DNA of 64,000 nucleotides, taken from contig CACJKN010000001.1 in NCBI GenBank assembly GCA_902594005.1, forward strand, positions 17,700-81,699. Reading direction: 5' to 3'. Position numbers and translations under genes: made by a program. Shown here one piece after another: positions 43,548 through 51,454 of the stretch; positions within the stretch are counted from its first letter, which is position 1, and each line of letters starts with the position of its first letter. This stretch comes from an uncultured SAR86 cluster bacterium. GTDB lineage: Bacteria; Pseudomonadota; Gammaproteobacteria; Magnimaribacterales; D2472. The notes beneath the pieces were generated by a model that made no database searches, had not been told where the DNA came from, and saw only the letters and a list, made by a program, of their open reading frames with translations.

Positions 43548-45980
43548 ATGAAAAATATCAGTTATTTATTAGGTTTATTATTAGCATTTTCCTGTGTTTC
43601 TTTTGCAGACGAAGAAGTCAAAGAAGCTCCTAAAGAATCAGAAGAAGCTATAGAAGATGTTGCTGAAGAGCCAGCGGATGAGGAAGCTGAAGAAGATAAA
43701 GAGCCAACTATCAGTGAATTCATTGAAGAGGGAGAATTTGAAGTCATTGAGGGTATGATCGATATTTATTATGAAACAGAAGAAGACACCTACTACACAA
43801 TTCTTGAAGAAGAAAATCTCTCAAAGGAATTTATTTATTTTTACTACATTATAAGTGGTGCTCAAGCAGGAGGAGCAAGTGGTGGAGATATGGGAGATAG
43901 TTCTGTATTAGAGTTTAGAAAATTTAAGGATGACATAGCCCTTTATAAGAAAAATACTGTCTTTAACTATGATGACTCTAACAATATCTCAAAATCTACT
44001 TTAACAAACATACTGGAATCATTTGTTGGTAGGTTTGAAGTAAAGATAGAAGAGGAAGGAAGATACCTAATAAATATAGATAAGTTATTTCTAGGTGAAA
44101 TGCTTGTTGGGCTTACCCCACCGAAAGAATATGCGGAGTATTACAGTCTTATTCTTGGAAGAATTGATGATAAAAAGACTTATATTAGCAGAGTGAAAAA
44201 CTATCCAAAAAATACCTCAGTAGAGGTGACTTATGGATTCTTTAATCCTAGCCCAAAGGGTTCAGTTGATGCAGTGCCCGATGCAAGATATTCAAGTATC
44301 GTAGCTAGGCACATGTTTGTCGAAATGCCAGATAACAATTATGAGCCAAGAGTTGCTGATCAACGAGTAGGATATTTCTCAACAAAAATTACTGATTTAA
44401 GCACTTATGACTATTTTAAGGGCAAGGATCTAATTAATAGATGGCGTTTAATAAAAAAGGATCCAACAGCAGAGATTTCTGAGCCAATAAATCCTATCGT
44501 TTTCTGGGTAGAAAACTCAACACCTGAAGAAATTAAACCATTTGTTGTTGAAGCAATTGAGCTTTGGAATATTGCCTTTGAGAAAGCAGGATTTAAAAAT
44601 GCAGTTGTTGCAAAAATCCAACCAGATGATGCTGAATGGGATGCTGGTGATGTTCAATACAATGTTATTCGTTGGGCTTCAACTCCCTCCCCTAGATATT
44701 CTGGATATGGTCCAAGTGTTGCTAACCCAAGAACTGGAGAAATGATAGCTGCTGATATAGTCCAAGAATTTAATTCCATTAGTTACGGATACAGACTTAG
44801 GAAGATCTGGGGTTATGATGAAGAAAATGATCCTTTAAGACAGTGGATTGTATCCTTAACGCTTCATGAAATTGGTCATACTCTAGGTCTCCGACATAAC
44901 TTTAAAGCAAGTTGGCTATATGGGCCTACTGAAATTCATGACAAAAGTGTAACTGGTAAGAATCATATTGGTTCTGTTATGGATTATGATCCAATCAATT
45001 TAGCTCCTGAGGGTGTCGAGCAAGGAAATTACTTCCCAACGGAGCCTGGTTTTTATGACATTTGGGCTATTGCTTTTGGCTATACCCCAAAGATGACGGA
45101 ACAGCAAAGAAATGATTTGTTGGCTCAATCTACAAAACCTGAACTTATATTTGGTACCGATGACGATGCTATGGGTTCCCCTGGAAGAAATACTGATCCA
45201 AGAAATAAAAGGTATGACATGTCAAATGATCCAATAACTTATACAGTTCAAAGGATTCAAACAATTGACAAGAAGATTGCTGAATTGCCAGAAATCTTTA
45301 ATGAGCCTGGGTCAACTTACTCTGAACTCAAAGGTACATTTGATAGTCTAGTTAGAGATAAGGGTAGATTTCTTGAGTCTGTTGCAATTCAAATTGGAGG
45401 AGTTTACTCCAACAGGCTTGTTGTAGGACAAGATGAAAACATGACACCTTTTGAGGTGGTCCCATATAGCGAACAAAAAAGGGCAATGAAAGTCTTAAAT
45501 GCTGAACTTTTTGCAAACGATGCTTTTACGTTTGATCCAGAGATATTAAGACTTCTTCAATCAGAAAAAAGAGCTGCAAGTTATGGAAACTCTGATAATG
45601 ATCCTAAGATTCATGATCTTGTTCTACGAATGCAGATGAGTTCACTTAGCTTTATTCTTCATCCAAGAGTAATGAAGAGACTTACAGATAGCTCTCAGTA
45701 TGGTAATGAATATTTACCAAATGAAGTCTTAGAAGATATTTTTACTGGCATCTTTGTGCCGAGAGAGATACCTGGTACATTTAAGATGAATCTTCAATCA
45801 GCTTATGTTGATGGCTTAATCGAAGCTATGGATGATGGAAGCTATGATGAAGTATCAAGAGCAGCTATCTTTAGCTCACTAAACAAAATAAAGAACTTTA
45901 CGAATTCAGCATATGGCAACGATATGGTGAAGGGGCACTTTGATTATTTAAATTGGAAAATAAACGACGCCCTCGATTGA
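43548..45980 (+). CDS. Exported zinc-dependent metalloprotease (DUF5117/DUF4953 'Met-zincin' type)
   Basis: Signal peptide, acidic N-terminal linker, ADQRVGYF, NPRTGEMI, HEIGHTLGLRHNF, SVMDY Met-turn. Confidence 0.9.
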   Translation: MKNISYLLGLLLAFSCVSFADEEVKEAPKESEEAIEDVAEEPADEEAEEDKEPTISEFIEEGEFEVIEGMIDIYYETEEDTYYTILEEENLSKEFIYFYYIISGAQAGGASGGDMGDSSVLEFRKFKDDIALYKKNTVFNYDDSNNISKSTLTNILESFVGRFEVKIEEEGRYLINIDKLFLGEMLVGLTPPKEYAEYYSLILGRIDDKKTYISRVKNYPKNTSVEVTYGFFNPSPKGSVDAVPDARYSSIVARHMFVEMPDNNYEPRVADQRVGYFSTKITDLSTYDYFKGKDLINRWRLIKKDPTAEISEPINPIVFWVENSTPEEIKPFVVEAIELWNIAFEKAGFKNAVVAKIQPDDAEWDAGDVQYNVIRWASTPSPRYSGYGPSVANPRTGEMIAADIVQEFNSISYGYRLRKIWGYDEENDPLRQWIVSLTLHEIGHTLGLRHNFKASWLYGPTEIHDKSVTGKNHIGSVMDYDPINLAPEGVEQGNYFPTEPGFYDIWAIAFGYTPKMTEQQRNDLLAQSTKPELIFGTDDDAMGSPGRNTDPRNKRYDMSNDPITYTVQRIQTIDKKIAELPEIFNEPGSTYSELKGTFDSLVRDKGRFLESVAIQIGGVYSNRLVVGQDENMTPFEVVPYSEQKRAMKVLNAELFANDAFTFDPEILRLLQSEKRAASYGNSDNDPKIHDLVLRMQMSSLSFILHPRVMKRLTDSSQYGNEYLPNEVLEDIFTGIFVPREIPGTFKMNLQSAYVDGLIEAMDDGSYDEVSRAAIFSSLNKIKNFTNSAYGNDMVKGHFDYLNWKINDALD

Positions 45981-46829
45981 TTAAAATGAGCCGCCTCTTA
46001 ATTTAGTATTTGGCGGCCCAAATATCAGCGATAAAGCTTCTTTCGCCGTTTTTGCTTTTCTAATATCTTTAAAGATTGCGCTCCACCCCATAAAGGTAAT
46101 CTTTACAGGATTAAATGTATTAACATTATTAACTAATCCATATTTGACCGGTGCTTTCTCAGGCTCAAATGTTCCGAACATCTTGTCCCAAATAATAAAA
46201 AGATTCCCATAATTTTTATCAATATACTCTTTATTAGCTCCATGATGGACTCTGTGATGAGAGGGTGTATTAAAAATAATTTCTAGTGGTCCAAGCTTGT
46301 CAACTATTTGGGTGTGTCCAACTACGCCCCAAAGTGTGCTTATAACTCCTGCAATAACAAGAATGGTTGGATCCATTCCTAGTAAAGGGAGTACTGCAAA
46401 AAAGGGAAGCTTTGACAGTGGCGCAAACCATGCCTGTCGGAGAGATACTGCAAAGTTCATTTCCTCACTGGAGTGGTGACTCATATGGATAGCCCACAGA
46501 AATCTTACTCTGTGTGAAAGCCTGTGATAAATATAAAAAACTAAATCTATCAACACAAAAGCTAACACCCACATAAGCCATAGAGGTATGAGATTAGCTA
46601 AATCTATAAATCTAAACTGGTAAAGGAAAATGTGAACTGCAAAAGATAGACCTTTTGCGGCTGATCCTATCAATATATTTCCAATAAGTAAGCCGGCAGT
46701 ACATAAAGTATCATCAAGCCTATAAAAGGACTTATTTGTAAGGGATGAAAACATTGCTTCCAAAGCAATCATTCCATAGATAATAGGAAGACCAATTGCG
46801 TAAACTTCTGCAACCGTTAGATTTGTCAT
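45981..46829 (-). CDS. Sterol desaturase / fatty-acid hydroxylase family (alkylglycerol monooxygenase-like)
   Basis: His boxes YIYHRLSH, WAIHMSHHSSE, NTPSHHRVHH; DKNYG...WDKMFGTF. Confidence 0.88.
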   Translation of the reverse strand: MTNLTVAEVYAIGLPIIYGMIALEAMFSSLTNKSFYRLDDTLCTAGLLIGNILIGSAAKGLSFAVHIFLYQFRFIDLANLIPLWLMWVLAFVLIDLVFYIYHRLSHRVRFLWAIHMSHHSSEEMNFAVSLRQAWFAPLSKLPFFAVLPLLGMDPTILVIAGVISTLWGVVGHTQIVDKLGPLEIIFNTPSHHRVHHGANKEYIDKNYGNLFIIWDKMFGTFEPEKAPVKYGLVNNVNTFNPVKITFMGWSAIFKDIRKAKTAKEALSLIFGPPNTKLRGGSF

Positions 46830-47395
46830 TTGGATTTTAACGCTTCGATATGCTCAACTAAAGATTGCAGCTCTGGTTTATTAGCTTTTATCTCATCCAT
46901 TGAAAGTCCTTGAAGCTCGTGCGGAAATACAAGCCACTGATCAGTCTCATGAATATGATAATCTGGAACTCTGTCAGTTTTATTTTTTCCTGGCTTGAAG
47001 TATGGTGTAGCAATTCTTATTTCGGGTGTGTTCTTTTTACAAGCTGACTTAAGGTCAGTTATTACTTTGTTAATAGACATGCCTGTGTCATAGACATCAT
47101 CAACAATTAAAAGCGAATCTTCTGATTCTAACTTTCTTATAACATAATTAAGCCCATATACTTGGACCTCATCCCTTCTTGAATCAATTCCCGAATAGTA
47201 TGAAGTTCTAATTGCAATATGATCGGAGGGGACACCAAGGAAATCTAGAAACTCTTGAACTGCTATGCCTATTGGAGCCCCGCCTCTCCAAACACCAATA
47301 ATATAGTTTGGTTTAAAACCGCTTTCGAAGATTTTCCAGGCTAGGTTATACGAGTCCTTTAATAATTGGTCTGCTTGGATAAAATGCTTTTCCAT
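46826..47395 (-). CDS. Type I phosphoribosyltransferase, xanthine/hypoxanthine-guanine PRT-like
   Basis: GVWRGG, PRPP-binding LIVDDVYDTG, WLVFPHE. Confidence 0.82.
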   Translation of the reverse strand: MEKHFIQADQLLKDSYNLAWKIFESGFKPNYIIGVWRGGAPIGIAVQEFLDFLGVPSDHIAIRTSYYSGIDSRRDEVQVYGLNYVIRKLESEDSLLIVDDVYDTGMSINKVITDLKSACKKNTPEIRIATPYFKPGKNKTDRVPDYHIHETDQWLVFPHELQGLSMDEIKANKPELQSLVEHIEALKSK

Positions 47396-47454: not shown

Positions 47455-49794
47455 CTAGAAGCTATATCTTAACCTCGTCATAACTTGTCTTGGCGGAATA
47501 AGCTCGAGCCCCGTTGCAGCAACACCAAATACGTCTGTCATACTTGAATTCACGCCGCTTTCATCAGTTACATTAAGAACCATGAAGTCTACAGCTAGGC
47601 TGTCGCTAAAACCAATACTCGTTGTTAGATTGCCGATTGTATAAGCTTTTATGTCATCAACAATTGGGTTATTAGAGACGCGTTGCTGGAACTCTCCTCT
47701 TCTAACATATTGAGCTGTTGTGGTTAATGAATTTCCAGAAGGTAAATTAGTTTCATGTTTAATTAAAATGTCTGCGGTGAATTCAGGCGTTTTAGCTAAC
47801 TGATTTCCTCTGACATTCTCTCTTAGTCCATATCTTAAATCTTCTTGGCCAAAGAAATATTGATATGCATCTACGTTATCAAGAACCTCATAGTCAGAAG
47901 TCACTTCCGACTCCAAGAATGCTAAGTTCATATCTATACTTAGGGAGTCTGTTACAAATCCAGTAAATTCTATCTCTAAACCAGACATTTCAGATTCCGG
48001 TATATTCGCTACGCCTCCTCTATATGGATCTGGATCAGTAGCTTGAAACTGTAGATTTTCATAAGTATAAGAAAACGCCGCTAAATTCGCTCTAGCTTTT
48101 CCATCTGCAAAAGTAGATTTGAGTCCAAGCTCAACTGACTCTACTGTTTCACTTTCAAAAGTTGGAAATACTAGCGCAGGAGCAATGGGTCTGCCTGCAA
48201 TTGCATCTTCTTCTTCAGTGAATCCGAATGTTAAGTTACTTCCACCAGGTTTGAAGCCTCTTGCTAGGGCAACATAAAGCATTGTGTCCTCAGACAGATC
48301 AAACTCTCCTACAACTCTTGATGTAACCTCATCAGTCGTTCCTTCCTCTTGAAAGCTTTCAACGTTTAAAAAGTTTGTTACATCGGTTGTAAAGGTGTCT
48401 TCTGAATATCGAAGTCCTGAAACGATTCTGAATGTATCACTAACATAAAGTGTGGTTTGTCCATAAATAGAAAATGATTCTCTTCCTGGGTTAGCATCTG
48501 TGAAGAAGTCAACTTCTGCAGCTGGTCCAAAAATATCAAATCTTCCTGGAATGCCATAGTCATGGTCATAACAATAGCTTGGGTCAGCAAAAGATTCATC
48601 ACATAAATATTTTATTCTTCCATCCAAGTCATCATCTCTATAGCCTCTAATGACGTTCTCAATTTCATGGTCCATATAAAACATTCCTACGGTCCAATCC
48701 AATCTATCTTCAATAGGCTGATTAGAGATTAAATTTATTTCTAAGGTTGTTGTATCAACAAGTGAAGTTTCTGGTGTAAATTCAGCTCTTTGGTAGGTTG
48801 CGCCTGCTCCAAGGCCAGGTATAGATAAAACTGGATCTAAATAGTTATGTCTATCATTATCTCTAACAACCAACACATCATCTTCTTGCACACTGGCAAT
48901 TGCTTTTAAATTAGCAAAACCTAAATCAGATTCATATATAGCTGCTAGAACCCATGATGATAGTTCATGCTGGGAAATCGTATCTTGAGAAAGTTTTCTC
49001 ATTCCTGAAGTCTGATCATCGATACCTCTTATAGCAGCACCATTTCTATCAACTTTAAAGTATTGTCCAAACACTCTGAGGCTTGATGTGTCATTTAAAT
49101 TGAACATCCAGTCAGTTCTGAAACTTTTACTATTATCATCATCAAGATCTTGGCCTGTATAAATATTCTTTGTGAACCCGTCACGAGTTGATGAAGATAG
49201 AGAGAATCTAGTTGCGATCTTGTCATTCACAACAAAATTGTTTGAAGCACTAACTTTACGGAGATTATAGTCACCAAAAGTTACATTCATTCTTCCTGAG
49301 CCGCCATCCATAGAAGGTGCTTTACTTATAACATTTACAGCACCACCAGTTGAGTTTTGACCAAACAATGTCCCCTGAGGCCCTCTTAAAACCTCAATTC
49401 TTTCGACATCTAAAAAGTCTGTGCCAAGTGCAAAAGGTGAAGCTATAAAAACTCCATCCATATGAAATGCTACAGAAGGTGCAGCAATTGCATTCTGATT
49501 GGTTTCGTTACCGACTCCTCTAATTGAGATGATAGTCTTGTAGCCTTCATTTTTTGCTACAGTCACGCCTGGAACAATTGCACTCAAGTCTACAAAACTT
49601 GTAATGTTCTTTTCTTCAATGTCAGATTCTGTCAATGCAGTAACGGCTTGAGAAATATCTTGGAGGTTTTCAGAACGCTTTTCAGCTGTAACTACAACTT
49701 CCTCAATTTCCTGAGCTACTAAAGATAGGCCAAAAGAGCCAACAAATGAAGCTAGAACAATTTTTTTAAATAAAATATTTACATAATTTTTCAT
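47455..49794 (-). CDS. TonB-dependent outer-membrane receptor
   Basis: Signal peptide, TonB box IEEVVVTAEKR, plug ERIEVLRGPQGTLFGQN, C-terminal RYSF. Start ATG 49794 after a GGGGA SD. Confidence 0.95.
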   Translation of the reverse strand: MKNYVNILFKKIVLASFVGSFGLSLVAQEIEEVVVTAEKRSENLQDISQAVTALTESDIEEKNITSFVDLSAIVPGVTVAKNEGYKTIISIRGVGNETNQNAIAAPSVAFHMDGVFIASPFALGTDFLDVERIEVLRGPQGTLFGQNSTGGAVNVISKAPSMDGGSGRMNVTFGDYNLRKVSASNNFVVNDKIATRFSLSSSTRDGFTKNIYTGQDLDDDNSKSFRTDWMFNLNDTSSLRVFGQYFKVDRNGAAIRGIDDQTSGMRKLSQDTISQHELSSWVLAAIYESDLGFANLKAIASVQEDDVLVVRDNDRHNYLDPVLSIPGLGAGATYQRAEFTPETSLVDTTTLEINLISNQPIEDRLDWTVGMFYMDHEIENVIRGYRDDDLDGRIKYLCDESFADPSYCYDHDYGIPGRFDIFGPAAEVDFFTDANPGRESFSIYGQTTLYVSDTFRIVSGLRYSEDTFTTDVTNFLNVESFQEEGTTDEVTSRVVGEFDLSEDTMLYVALARGFKPGGSNLTFGFTEEEDAIAGRPIAPALVFPTFESETVESVELGLKSTFADGKARANLAAFSYTYENLQFQATDPDPYRGGVANIPESEMSGLEIEFTGFVTDSLSIDMNLAFLESEVTSDYEVLDNVDAYQYFFGQEDLRYGLRENVRGNQLAKTPEFTADILIKHETNLPSGNSLTTTAQYVRRGEFQQRVSNNPIVDDIKAYTIGNLTTSIGFSDSLAVDFMVLNVTDESGVNSSMTDVFGVAATGLELIPPRQVMTRLRYSF

Positions 49795-49873
49795 AAAATT
49801 TCCCCGTAAAGTTTTTTTATTTTGCAATTTGTCTGCAGGACAATTGAAGCTAAACTCGACCAGTTTAACGGTG

Positions 49874-49922
49874 GCGTTCCTTCGGTTTTCACCTACTTCC
49901 GTCTCCTAAGAGATGAACGATT
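49874..49922 (-). ncRNA. glnA-motif (glutamine-I) riboswitch aptamer, copy 2 (gene-proximal)
   Basis: Minus strand AAU-CGUUC-A-UCUC(UUAG)GAGA-CGGAAGUA-GGU(GAAA)ACC-GAAG-GAACG-C: P1/P2/P3 three-way junction with an AGUA/GAA E-loop, as in the glnA consensus. Confidence 0.88.
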
Positions 49923-49925
49923 AGC

Positions 49926-49974
49926 GCGTTCCTTCAGCTTTCGCTTACTTCCGACTCCGAAGAGTTGAACGATT
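49926..49974 (-). ncRNA. glnA-motif (glutamine-I) riboswitch aptamer, copy 1 (gene-distal)
   Basis: Minus strand AAU-CGUUC-A-ACUC(UUCG)GAGU-CGGAAGUA-AGC(GAAA)GCU-GAAG-GAACG-C. Stem differences from copy 2 are compensatory. Confidence 0.88.
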
Positions 49975-50164
49975 TTAACTCACTTACACTCAATCACTTG
50001 AGCTCCTTTTTAACCATGGAGATGGTGCAAATTAAATCACAATGTAAAATAATACTTTTTAAAAATTAAGTTAACAAGATAGAAATCAATATTTGAAGGC
50101 ATTTTTTGTTTTTTTTTGCATTAAAAACTAAATTAATGTCTTTAAAGCTGTAAAATTTATCAAA

Positions 50165-51454
50165 ATGCTAGAAAAAATATTCAAACTTGAATCAAATAAC
50201 ACCTCAATCGGTAAAGAGATCTTAGCTGGAGTTACCACATTTGTAACAATGGCATACATCATCTTTGTAAATCCGCAGATGATGGCTGTTAGTGGTATGG
50301 ATTTAGGTGCTAGTTTTGTAGGGACATGTCTTGCAGCATCTCTAGCCTGCATAATTATGGGTGTATATTCTAATTGGCCGGTAAGCTTGGCGCCCGGCAT
50401 GGGTCTAAATGCTTTTTTTACTTATACCGTTGTAGGTGAAATGGGATATTCTTGGGAAGTCGCTCTTGGTGCTGTTTTCTTGGCAGGGGTTTTGTTTTTT
50501 ATAATGAGTATTACCAGATTAAGAAGATGGATGCTTGATAGTATTCCTCTAAATCTTCGCATTGCTATGGGTGCTGGTGTAGGGCTATTTATTGGCTTTA
50601 TTGGTTTGAAAAACGGTGGATTGATTGTTTCTAATAATGCCACCTTCCTTAGTCTAGGAGACTTCACCAATATAGAAACATTATTGGCTGCCTTGGGTTT
50701 TCTTACAATTTGTTCTTTATCGGTCAGAAATATCCCAGGAGCTATTCTGATTGGTGTAATCCTGGTTACAGTATGCTCTATATTCCTTGATTTAATTGAG
50801 TTTGGTGGCTTAGTCTCTATGCCTCCCAGTGTTGCTCCAACTCTGATGAAAATGGATATCTTGGGTGCTTTAGATATTGCGATGCTTAGTGTGGTTATGT
50901 CTTTCCTTTTTGTTAATTTATTTGATACTGCGGGGACGCTGCTAGGTGTTGCTACAAGAGCAAAAATAACCGATGAATATGGTAATGCAAAGAACTTTGA
51001 TAAAGCTCTAAAAGCTGATAGCAGTTCTAGTATCTTTGGAACCTTTTTTGGGTGCTCTCCAGTAACAAGCTATGTTGAGAGTTCTGCTGGAGTTGAGGCT
51101 GGAGGTAGAACAGGATTAACAACTGTTGTTGTTGGGCTTTTATTTTTAGTTGCTATTTTCTTTTCACCATTAGCTGCAATTGTTCCAGCATATGCAACCG
51201 CTGGAGCCTTAATTTATGTTTCTATCCTAATGATGAGCGGTATGGAAAAACTTAATTGGTCTGATTCAACAGAGCTTTTACCAGCTCTGGTAATTATCGT
51301 AATGATTCCTCTCACCTTTTCAATTGCAAATGGGATTGCCCTCGGATTCTTGGCATATGTTGTGCTAAAGGTCTCTAATGGTGAAGTTAAAAATATTTCC
51401 TCTGGAGCTTGGTTCTTAACTGCTGTTTTTGTTTCAAAGTTTCTTTTTTTATAA
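50165..51454 (+). CDS. NCS2 / AzgA-type purine (adenine/guanine/hypoxanthine) permease
   Basis: EILAGVTTFVTMAYIIFVNP, LAPGMGLNAFF, FDTAGTL, TSYVESSAGVEAGGRTGLT, PLTFSIANGI. Confidence 0.92.
   Translation: MLEKIFKLESNNTSIGKEILAGVTTFVTMAYIIFVNPQMMAVSGMDLGASFVGTCLAASLACIIMGVYSNWPVSLAPGMGLNAFFTYTVVGEMGYSWEVALGAVFLAGVLFFIMSITRLRRWMLDSIPLNLRIAMGAGVGLFIGFIGLKNGGLIVSNNATFLSLGDFTNIETLLAALGFLTICSLSVRNIPGAILIGVILVTVCSIFLDLIEFGGLVSMPPSVAPTLMKMDILGALDIAMLSVVMSFLFVNLFDTAGTLLGVATRAKITDEYGNAKNFDKALKADSSSSIFGTFFGCSPVTSYVESSAGVEAGGRTGLTTVVVGLLFLVAIFFSPLAAIVPAYATAGALIYVSILMMSGMEKLNWSDSTELLPALVIIVMIPLTFSIANGIALGFLAYVVLKVSNGEVKNISSGAWFLTAVFVSKFLFL

Follow-up and report, generated by a model that had tools for sequence, protein, structure and literature searches.

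The window analysed here is a 64-kb stretch of DNA from an uncultured SAR86 cluster bacterium (contig CACJKN010000001.1 of a 0.99-Mb assembly, 79% complete), and at one locus it carries a tandem pair of glutamine riboswitch aptamers in the leader of an operon that opens with a TonB-dependent receptor (TBDR). Scanning the whole window with Rfam (cmscan, gathering thresholds) gave exactly two matches, both to the glutamine riboswitch family RF01739 and both on the minus strand: aptamer 1 at 49923-49973 (66.2 bits, E-value 1.8e-12) and aptamer 2 at 49871-49921 (65.5 bits, E-value 2.9e-12), the gathering cut-off of the family being 35 bits. Both cover model positions 1-53 of 53, so neither is truncated, and a permissive Rfam scan of 49750-50170 returned no further family besides a sub-threshold Glutamine-II overlap (16.5 bits, cut-off 33). 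The aptamers lie inside a divergent intergenic region, 76 nt before the start of the TBDR gene (779 aa, 47455-49794, minus strand) and on its strand. The TBDR gene is followed after 59 nt by a gene for a purine-type phosphoribosyltransferase (PRT; 189 aa, 46826-47395, minus strand, Pribosyltran domain), which overlaps by 4 nt with a gene for a fatty-acid-hydroxylase family protein that is weakly OlsE-like (45981-46829, minus strand). On the other side of the intergenic region, a Xan_ur_permease-family permease (50165-51454, plus strand, assigned by domain match) is encoded divergently and is not under the riboswitch. Two complete aptamers 1 nt apart are thus followed by one expression platform and one gene, in what would be a 5' untranslated leader of roughly 250 nt.

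The original prediction for this locus had described two 49-nt direct repeats 3 nt apart at 49874-49974, had assigned them to the glnA motif and had placed them upstream of the receptor gene. The repeats are the same object, resolved by Infernal as 51-nt units 1 nt apart, and both the assignment and the placement were borne out by the full-length covariance model matches and by the position of the receptor start. The helices and junction that it listed are present by sequence in both copies: P1 is CGUUC/GAACG in each, P2 is ACUC-UUCG-GAGU in one copy and UCUC-UUAG-GAGA in the other, P3 is AGC-GAAA-GCU in one and GGU-GAAA-ACC in the other, the junction is CGGAAGUA and both aptamers end in GAAGGAACGC. 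Between the two 48-nt cores, 41 of 48 positions are the same and seven differ: three compensatory pairs, of which one is in P2 and two are in P3, account for six of the differences, and the seventh lies in the P2 loop, in keeping with the prediction that the stem differences were compensatory. All conserved core positions fit the RF01739 consensus in the cmscan alignment, including, in both CGGAAGUA and GAAGGAACGC, the junction G and the C directly 3' of P1, a match that concerns the presence of the two bases and not the formation of the pair. In the structural work of Ren et al. the ligand-dependent long-range pair is formed by these two bases (G23-C60; cited in PMC6212724). Judged by its sequence, the element is a real, conserved, canonical tandem type-1 glutamine riboswitch.

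We considered whether the aptamers might sense another ligand, for example a purine-related one as the original prediction had allowed, which would match the purine-type PRT and the Xan_ur_permease-family permease that surround them. However, besides the consensus match of the conserved core, each window aptamer is 48/48 identical to aptamer 1 or aptamer 2, respectively, of the ammonium-transporter (amtB) leader in the congener G007; because of this identity a changed ligand is very unlikely, and we give it next to no weight.

To place the element we used 41 related genomes of the same order; the window genus (g1) is represented by 11 genomes and g13, a genus of another family, by five. RF01739 occurs in 29 of the 41, including 10 of 10 congeners, at 46 sites for which the downstream genes were classified. 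Control of an outer-membrane receptor by this motif had been called atypical for a heterotrophic gammaproteobacterium in the original prediction, but the motif is common in the order, and what is new is the receptor as its target. The window genus has three leader types, with two aptamers ahead of the gene for a GlnII glutamine synthetase, three ahead of the genes for a putative porin of the TorF family and for AmtB, and two ahead of the TBDR-PRT-hydroxylase operon; the last type is found in nine of 11 genomes. In one of the two exceptions (G006) the TBDR ortholog (66% identical) is cut at a contig end, and the other (G010) has no ortholog in its assembly. The aptamers are 1 nt apart in the TBDR leader, whilst a small hairpin separates them in the GlnII and amtB leaders. 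The window assembly itself (G000) lacks GlnII, GSI, amtB, PII and TorF porin loci. The TBDR ortholog is found in the same gene order in SCGC AAA076-P13, which is named as a SAR86 genus (PMC9771814), and RF01739 has been reported within deletions in SAR86 metagenome-assembled genomes (MAGs; PMC12379486); these findings point to a SAR86-like lineage.

The same leaders also occur in metagenomes. A scan of public contigs with a pattern comprising the aptamer end and the platform yielded 80 loci, of which 22 precede TBDR orthologs (67-99% identical), 37 GlnII, three GSI, six the TorF porin and three PII; in five the contig runs out, and four are chance matches without RF01739, two of which (L161 and L166) sit in a 455-aa terminase-like open frame. 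Among the 22 TBDR loci, 20 have an RF01739 match and the remaining two are cut by a contig end; 15 of the leaders have two aptamers, one of these having its upstream copy cut by the contig end. One metagenome contig (L189:3746-3918) combines an amtB-type promoter and a short 5' domain with two aptamers and a TBDR 99% identical to that of the window, a join that may have arisen by natural recombination of leaders or through chimeric assembly at the aptamers they share. Many MAG contigs (G001:C9, G002:C11, G009:C6 and G010:C10) stop exactly within leaders; assemblies evidently break there because the aptamers and platform are near-identical.

A further question is whether the leader is a passenger, that is, a duplicated GlnII or amtB leader that came to lie before the receptor gene and has no regulatory effect or is decaying. 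The cassette has clearly been copied between loci, as its aptamers are identical to those of a congener's amtB leader whilst its 5' domain is GlnII-like, and L189, whether by recombination or mis-assembly, joins an amtB-type 5' domain to the TBDR. Yet the aptamers, platform and promoter-like hexamers are intact in nine genomes though the TBDR proteins differ by up to ~15%, and two more divergent metagenome orthologs (68-70% identical) each retain a single 69.8-bit aptamer together with the platform. A scan of 49700-50250 also gave no promoter candidate between the aptamers and the start codon, its only match being at 50049-50077, upstream of both aptamers. We therefore regard a passenger leader as distinctly unlikely.

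Related genomes have a different control element at the same genes. TBDR orthologs at 67-71% identity keep the permease / TBDR / PRT order, and in the five of five loci with upstream sequence there is no RF01739; instead, TGGCAT-N5-TTGCA stands within 260 nt upstream of the start in all five. This sequence corresponds to the classical -24/-12 promoter of sigma-54. In the rpoN-positive genomes G013 and G014 a promoter of this type also stands before the TBDR ortholog, and in five rpoN-positive genomes it is found before GlnII (L093) and before the TorF-porin/amtB genes (L098, L102, L104 and L111). The sigma-54 argument uses only individually inspected intergenic sites upstream of GlnII, the porin and the TBDR. 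Counting TGGCAYN5TTGCW per genome was rejected as a measure of the sigma-54 regulon, as rpoN-negative genomes hold 4-9 such sites and rpoN-positive genomes 5-9; in a crude test, 10 of 10 sites in the former lie in long open frames vs. 19 of 30 in the latter. In three rpoN-positive genomes (L089, L095 and L106) a sigma-54-type promoter was also seen before a protein of ~125-130 aa with a conserved ..SLNFFQSDTY.F motif.

The regulators themselves are distributed accordingly. None of the 11 g1 genomes and none of the five g13 genomes gave a match to the sigma-54 DNA-binding domain of rpoN (PF04552), whilst it is present in 14 of 14 genomes of other genera in the window family. A strong NtrC-type match (E-value ~1e-70) occurs in all 22 rpoN-positive genomes and additionally in G029, which has no PF04552 match; none was found in g1, g13 or g18. 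The gene order lptB-rpoN-next gene is seen in G013 (L133), and rpoN is gone from the same place in G001, G003, G005, G027 and G030 (L135-L139), where lptB is separated from the next gene by ~5 nt in the first three and by ~90 nt in the last two. Likewise, G013 has glnII-ntrB-ntrC-gpm (L134) and in G016 the locus ends after glnII-ntrB, whilst glnII and a gpm-like gene directly adjoin in 11 g1 and g13 loci. As the synteny is conserved around the missing rpoN and ntrB-ntrC, these are deletions and not assembly gaps. All 16 genomes of g1 and g13, in turn, have platform-type leaders, which are absent from each of the 22 rpoN-positive genomes. Since the genus has deleted rpoN and ntrBC whilst sister genera drive the orthologous TBDR, GlnII and amtB genes from sigma-54 promoters, the riboswitch most likely replaced NtrC/sigma-54 as the input of nitrogen status. 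Our overall reading is that functional L-glutamine aptamers reside in the operon leader, that they took over from NtrC/sigma-54, and that they would switch the operon off at high glutamine; we assign this reading a probability of roughly 0.68.

The leader appears to be a modular cassette in which a structured 5' domain is followed by one to three aptamers and these by a conserved 3' platform; in the window all of these parts lie on the minus strand. Its promoter candidate is sigma-70-like (TTGTTA, 17 nt, TATTAT; 50049-50077) and would place the transcription start near 50042. It is the single consensus match in 49700-50250, and is weak alone because shuffled sequences average 2.0 matches; its hexamers are nevertheless found in eight of eight congeneric TBDR leaders having upstream sequence. 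The 5' domain (49982-50031), conserved and partly covarying, contains UUUGCACC, a hairpin ACCAU/AUGGU in which the CUCC of the loop pairs with GGAG further downstream (50003-50006), and a variable hairpin CUCAA/UUGAG at 49989-50002, for which compensatory changes are seen by eye in the alignment. It is common to GlnII, amtB and TBDR leaders of two families, which before the first aptamer also share GAGUUAAA. In the CUCC/GGAG helix both sides change in two of four pairs, 98.7% of cells are paired, and the covariation score was reached by none of 500 shuffles; the support from covariation is moderate only, because the compared sequences are related. As a covarying structure stands before the aptamers, it argues that the RNA starts upstream of them.

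The 3' platform (49832-49870) comprises a hairpin, H1 (CGUUAAAC, loop, CGAGUUUAGC; 49849-49869), then UUCAA, then UCCUGCAGA (49832-49840). Its consensus, CGUUAAAC-loop-CGAGUUURRC-UUCAA-N-UCCUGCAGA, is common to GlnII, amtB and TBDR leaders and is kept 3' of the last aptamer in 23 aligned leaders of g1 and g13; the platform is absent from the leaders of rpoN-positive genera. Beyond it lie the Shine-Dalgarno sequence GGGGA (49801-49805) and the ATG with which the receptor gene begins (49792-49794), and ACGGGGAAA..ATG is kept in congeners. A sigma-54 promoter within the platform (CUGCAG..UUGCA) was considered and rejected against the usual pattern of GG-N10-GC at fixed spacing with rpoN in the genome: the -24 element has TG and not GG, the spacing from CTGCAG to the TGCA element runs from N5 to N9 among leaders, and a search of the 11 genomes of the genus found no rpoN in any of them.

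Two states of this leader can be drawn that exclude each other. The 5' strand of a putative long-range helix, GAGUUAAAAUCG (49970-49981), joins the flank to the opening bases of aptamer 1, namely AU and the first two of P1 (CG). It is complementary to 49847-49858 in the platform (CGAGUUUAGCUU), pairing at 11 of 12 positions in the window, at 10-11 of 12 in 16 of 18 genome leaders and at 10 or more of 12 in 73 of 85 genome and metagenome leaders. This helix is mutually exclusive with P1 of aptamer 1 and with H1, and RNAalifold additionally pairs the AACG of the last aptamer's P1 with the CGUU of the platform. In the ligand-stabilised state, P1 of each aptamer would be formed together with the local hairpin H1; in the alternative state, the 12-nt helix would take the first bases of aptamer 1 P1 and the 3' strand of H1, and the platform CGUU may take the AACG of the last aptamer's P1. 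When the ensemble was constrained to either all P1 helices or the long helix, the free energies mostly differed by ~1-7 kcal/mol (10 in leader L044), a small gap that fits a switch tipped by ligand binding; folding the leader as a single sequence was uninformative (z = +1.16). Competition between the two RNA states is proposed from their complementarity. Occlusion of the Shine-Dalgarno sequence by the platform UCCUG was tried as the output and rejected; RNAalifold pairs UCCU with the AGGA of the last aptamer and constrained folding shows no consistent change in accessibility. The sensor and the competing helices appear reasonably grounded, more so than the output step, which may act on the ribosome-binding site or on transcript stability.

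In the mechanism we propose, a constitutive promoter of the sigma-70 type would drive the operon. When glutamine is low, the leader would adopt the long-range helix state and the operon would be expressed, and when glutamine is high, both aptamers would fold, H1 would form and expression would fall through translation or transcript stability. The operon is expected to be on at low glutamine and off when both aptamers are occupied because the leader replaces the NtrC/sigma-54 input, and given a cis-acting regulator we consider the OFF direction likely, by the logic of the regulon alone.

The principal alternative is that the aptamers are genuine and cis-acting but form an ON switch, glutamine sufficiency inducing the receptor operon in the manner of the cyanobacterial gifB leader. 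The only type-1 glutamine riboswitch described as tested in vivo activates on ammonium upshift (PMC6212724), down-regulation on nitrogen depletion was inferred for both glutamine motifs by Weinberg et al. (PMC2864571), and the mechanism postulated for gifB is a hairpin that sequesters the Shine-Dalgarno sequence (PMC6212724). Leaders of that type do occur in the sister genera. In rpoN-positive sister genera RF01739 precedes open reading frames of 43-54 aa, in tandem in six leaders (L056, L057, L060, L062, L066 and L072) and singly in three (L055, L058 and L069); the encoded peptides fall into two families, one mostly ending in ..FFPYYL and the other with repeated YRG motifs. In the six tandem leaders a hairpin GCAUCU..GGAGAUG, starting from the C after P1, covers the Shine-Dalgarno sequence and the start codon, resembling the ON-type gifB leader of cyanobacteria, and by analogy the short peptides might be counterparts of GS-inactivating factors. 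Because these hairpin leaders match the mechanism postulated for gifB, the lineage seems to use both ON and OFF logic with different platforms. The window platform, however, is unlike the ON-type hairpin, as the bases following the C after P1 are not complementary to the Shine-Dalgarno sequence; the same platform heads GlnII and amtB, whose induction by glutamine is physiologically implausible; and sister genera, which encode an NtrC-type activator, have sigma-54 promoters at the orthologous genes. Ntr systems fire at low nitrogen. An ON switch at this locus is therefore, in our estimate, unlikely.

Further RF01739 leaders were seen elsewhere in the order. A third genus without rpoN has a single aptamer with a different platform upstream of the gene for the large subunit of glutamate synthase (1519 aa; L073 in G035 and L075 in G038), and in two rpoN-positive genera a single aptamer precedes an operon for a circularly permuted ATP-grasp protein and a protein with an Alpha-E domain (L054 in G011 and L061 in G021).

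Several points weigh against the reading of an OFF-type riboswitch that replaced sigma-54. The only type-1 glutamine riboswitch given as experimentally characterised in PMC6212724 is an ON switch. The correlation between rpoN loss and the platform-type leader represents two genera and not 16 independent events, and in the window genome a contig ends at the neighbour of rpoN and the assembly contains neither the GS nor the amtB locus, so that the absence of rpoN there is taken from its congeners. In the leader, the promoter is a consensus match only, and the long-range helix shows no double compensatory change in 85 leaders; because its changes are solely single-sided and wobble-compatible the helix stays putative, and those in its 3' strand suit the local hairpin H1 equally well. 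The modelled accessibility of the Shine-Dalgarno sequence does not change consistently, the unbound state raising it in three of 18 leaders (the window included), lowering it in two and hardly changing it in the rest, and a search of the leader for an intrinsic terminator-like site found none. As for the target, the TBDR fits no NCBIfam subfamily (the best, TIGR01783, reaches 106.8 bits where 223.5 are required, and the others fall far below their cut-offs), the protein atlas gives it generic matches only, as do the sequences of solved structures (nearest FyuA, Cir and BtuB, chiefly in the plug), and a role in nitrogen scavenging is suggested by its regulation alone.

RNA-library contigs bear on a further alternative, in which the locus would mainly yield a short and stable RNA of the leader, working in trans or as a decoy that depends on glutamine, with gene control secondary. 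These contigs come from four runs in three studies; they may contain DNA and give no ends, strand or level. They span the TBDR coding region (the longest piece covers 47500-49504 with 159 other letters), break near 49801-49806 and are lacking over 50058-50211, and we draw no inference from either the breaks or the gap. Over the leader bins (49750-50057) their word depth is far above that of the coding region, as a stable leader RNA would predict. This depth is confounded, however, because contigs of GlnII and amtB leaders share sequences with the window leader and map there, with joints and inserted letters, and contigs cannot give RNA ends. With no terminator-like site found in the leader, we consider a leader RNA acting in trans decidedly improbable, and retain control of the operon in cis.

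The operon genes suggest, with less certainty, what is being controlled. The receptor has the features of its class: Plug (E-value 2.6e-17) and TonB_dep_Rec_b-barrel (1.6e-29) domains, a hydrophobic N-terminus with EEVVVTAEKR near it, and a C-terminal ...RYSF, the barrel being assigned by domain match and not by strand count. The 59-nt gap between the TBDR and PRT genes holds no terminator-like feature. The best solved relative of the PRT is the purine PRT 1vdm (E-value 4.1e-14), followed by GpT-2 and GpT-1 of Sulfolobus, all archaeal purine PRTs. The PRT gene lies 3' of the TBDR ortholog in six of six related loci with downstream sequence, and the divergent permease/TBDR pairing is kept in six of six with upstream sequence, whilst among the related loci compared the hydroxylase gene adjoins TBDR-PRT only in the window genus. 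From its regulation the TBDR probably imports a nitrogen-rich organic compound. The conserved linkage with the permease and PRT points, more tentatively, to uptake and salvage of a purine-type substrate at low glutamine, an idea we favour less than its negation. De novo purine synthesis uses up glutamine, so that purine uptake and salvage when glutamine is low would be sensible. Converging on the end of the operon is a gene for a secreted-looking Met-zincin (DUF4953 and DUF5117; 810 aa, 43548-45980, plus strand), whose stop abuts that of the hydroxylase gene.

Type-1 glutamine riboswitches upstream of glnA have been seen in marine metagenomes, where both their taxon and their regulatory direction were stated to be unknown, although negative regulation was called reasonable for them (Klahn et al. 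2018, PMC6212724). The window aptamers are ordinary members of RF01739, and tandem copies of glnA RNAs are on record since the motif was first described (Weinberg et al. 2010, PMC2864571). Our searches of the literature on glutamine riboswitches in connection with TonB, SAR86 and gammaproteobacteria found no TBDR target, though the supplementary gene lists of PMC2864571 and PMC6212724 may list such. New with respect to this literature are the receptor as a target, the 5' domain and 3' platform, the assignment of metagenomic glnA riboswitches to SAR86-like bacteria and the link to the loss of rpoN and ntrBC. We would go further and propose that SAR86-like lineages lacking rpoN and ntrBC use a modular, OFF-type leader of ~250 nt, with a pseudoknot-like 5' domain, as their nitrogen regulator, and that duplication and recombination have carried this leader into three or more operons (GlnII, TorF-porin/amtB and the TBDR with purine salvage genes); we hold the case for this wider proposal to be evenly balanced.

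If true, a riboswitch regulon would stand in place of a two-component/sigma-54 regulon, and the organisms behind the long-unassigned glnA glutamine riboswitches of marine metagenomes would be identified. Our data already assign a large share of these type-1 riboswitches to SAR86-like gammaproteobacteria, among the most abundant bacterioplankton of the ocean. An outer-membrane TBDR would join the glutamine riboswitch regulon, marking a predicted nitrogen-scavenging gene in an uncultured, TBDR-rich lineage. Were the riboswitch indeed the successor of NtrC/sigma-54, the leader, compact, testable and tied to the loss of rpoN and ntrBC, would offer a clear instance in nature of genome streamlining, an RNA sensor having taken the place of a cascade of regulatory proteins at the same promoters.

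The window leader can be set beside several known systems. It shares with the glnA RNA motif of cyanobacteria and marine metagenomes the fold and core, the tandem arrangement and the link to nitrogen genes, the same cassette standing on GlnII and amtB, but unlike the motif as described its host is a heterotrophic SAR86-like gammaproteobacterium, and the TBDR/purine-PRT target is outside the gene classes named in the available parts of PMC2864571 and PMC6212724. Unlike the gifB leader, it carries a conserved platform 3' of the aptamers and a structured domain 5' of them, and its predicted direction is OFF and not ON. TonB-dependent receptors such as btuB are known to be under a cobalamin riboswitch, whose ligand is the cargo or a derivative of it and which therefore exerts feedback on uptake. 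Such a riboswitch lies upstream of btuB in OM43 (PMC9004378), and the window leader likewise precedes the gene of an outer-membrane TonB-dependent transporter, yet its ligand is a gauge of global nitrogen status and probably differs from the cargo. Tandem riboswitches have been tied to "more-digital gene regulation" (PMC2864571). In having two or three complete aptamers of the same class before a single platform, the leaders described here resemble another tandem architecture that is well known, that of the glycine aptamers, but differ from it in that the aptamers of the TBDR leader are 1 nt apart whilst those of the GlnII and amtB leaders are separated by a hairpin. A further parallel is the proteobacterial NtrBC/sigma-54 regulon, which has the same set of targets (GlnII, TorF-porin/amtB and the orthologous TBDR); the window genus, however, lacks its protein regulators and has a glutamine-sensing RNA instead.

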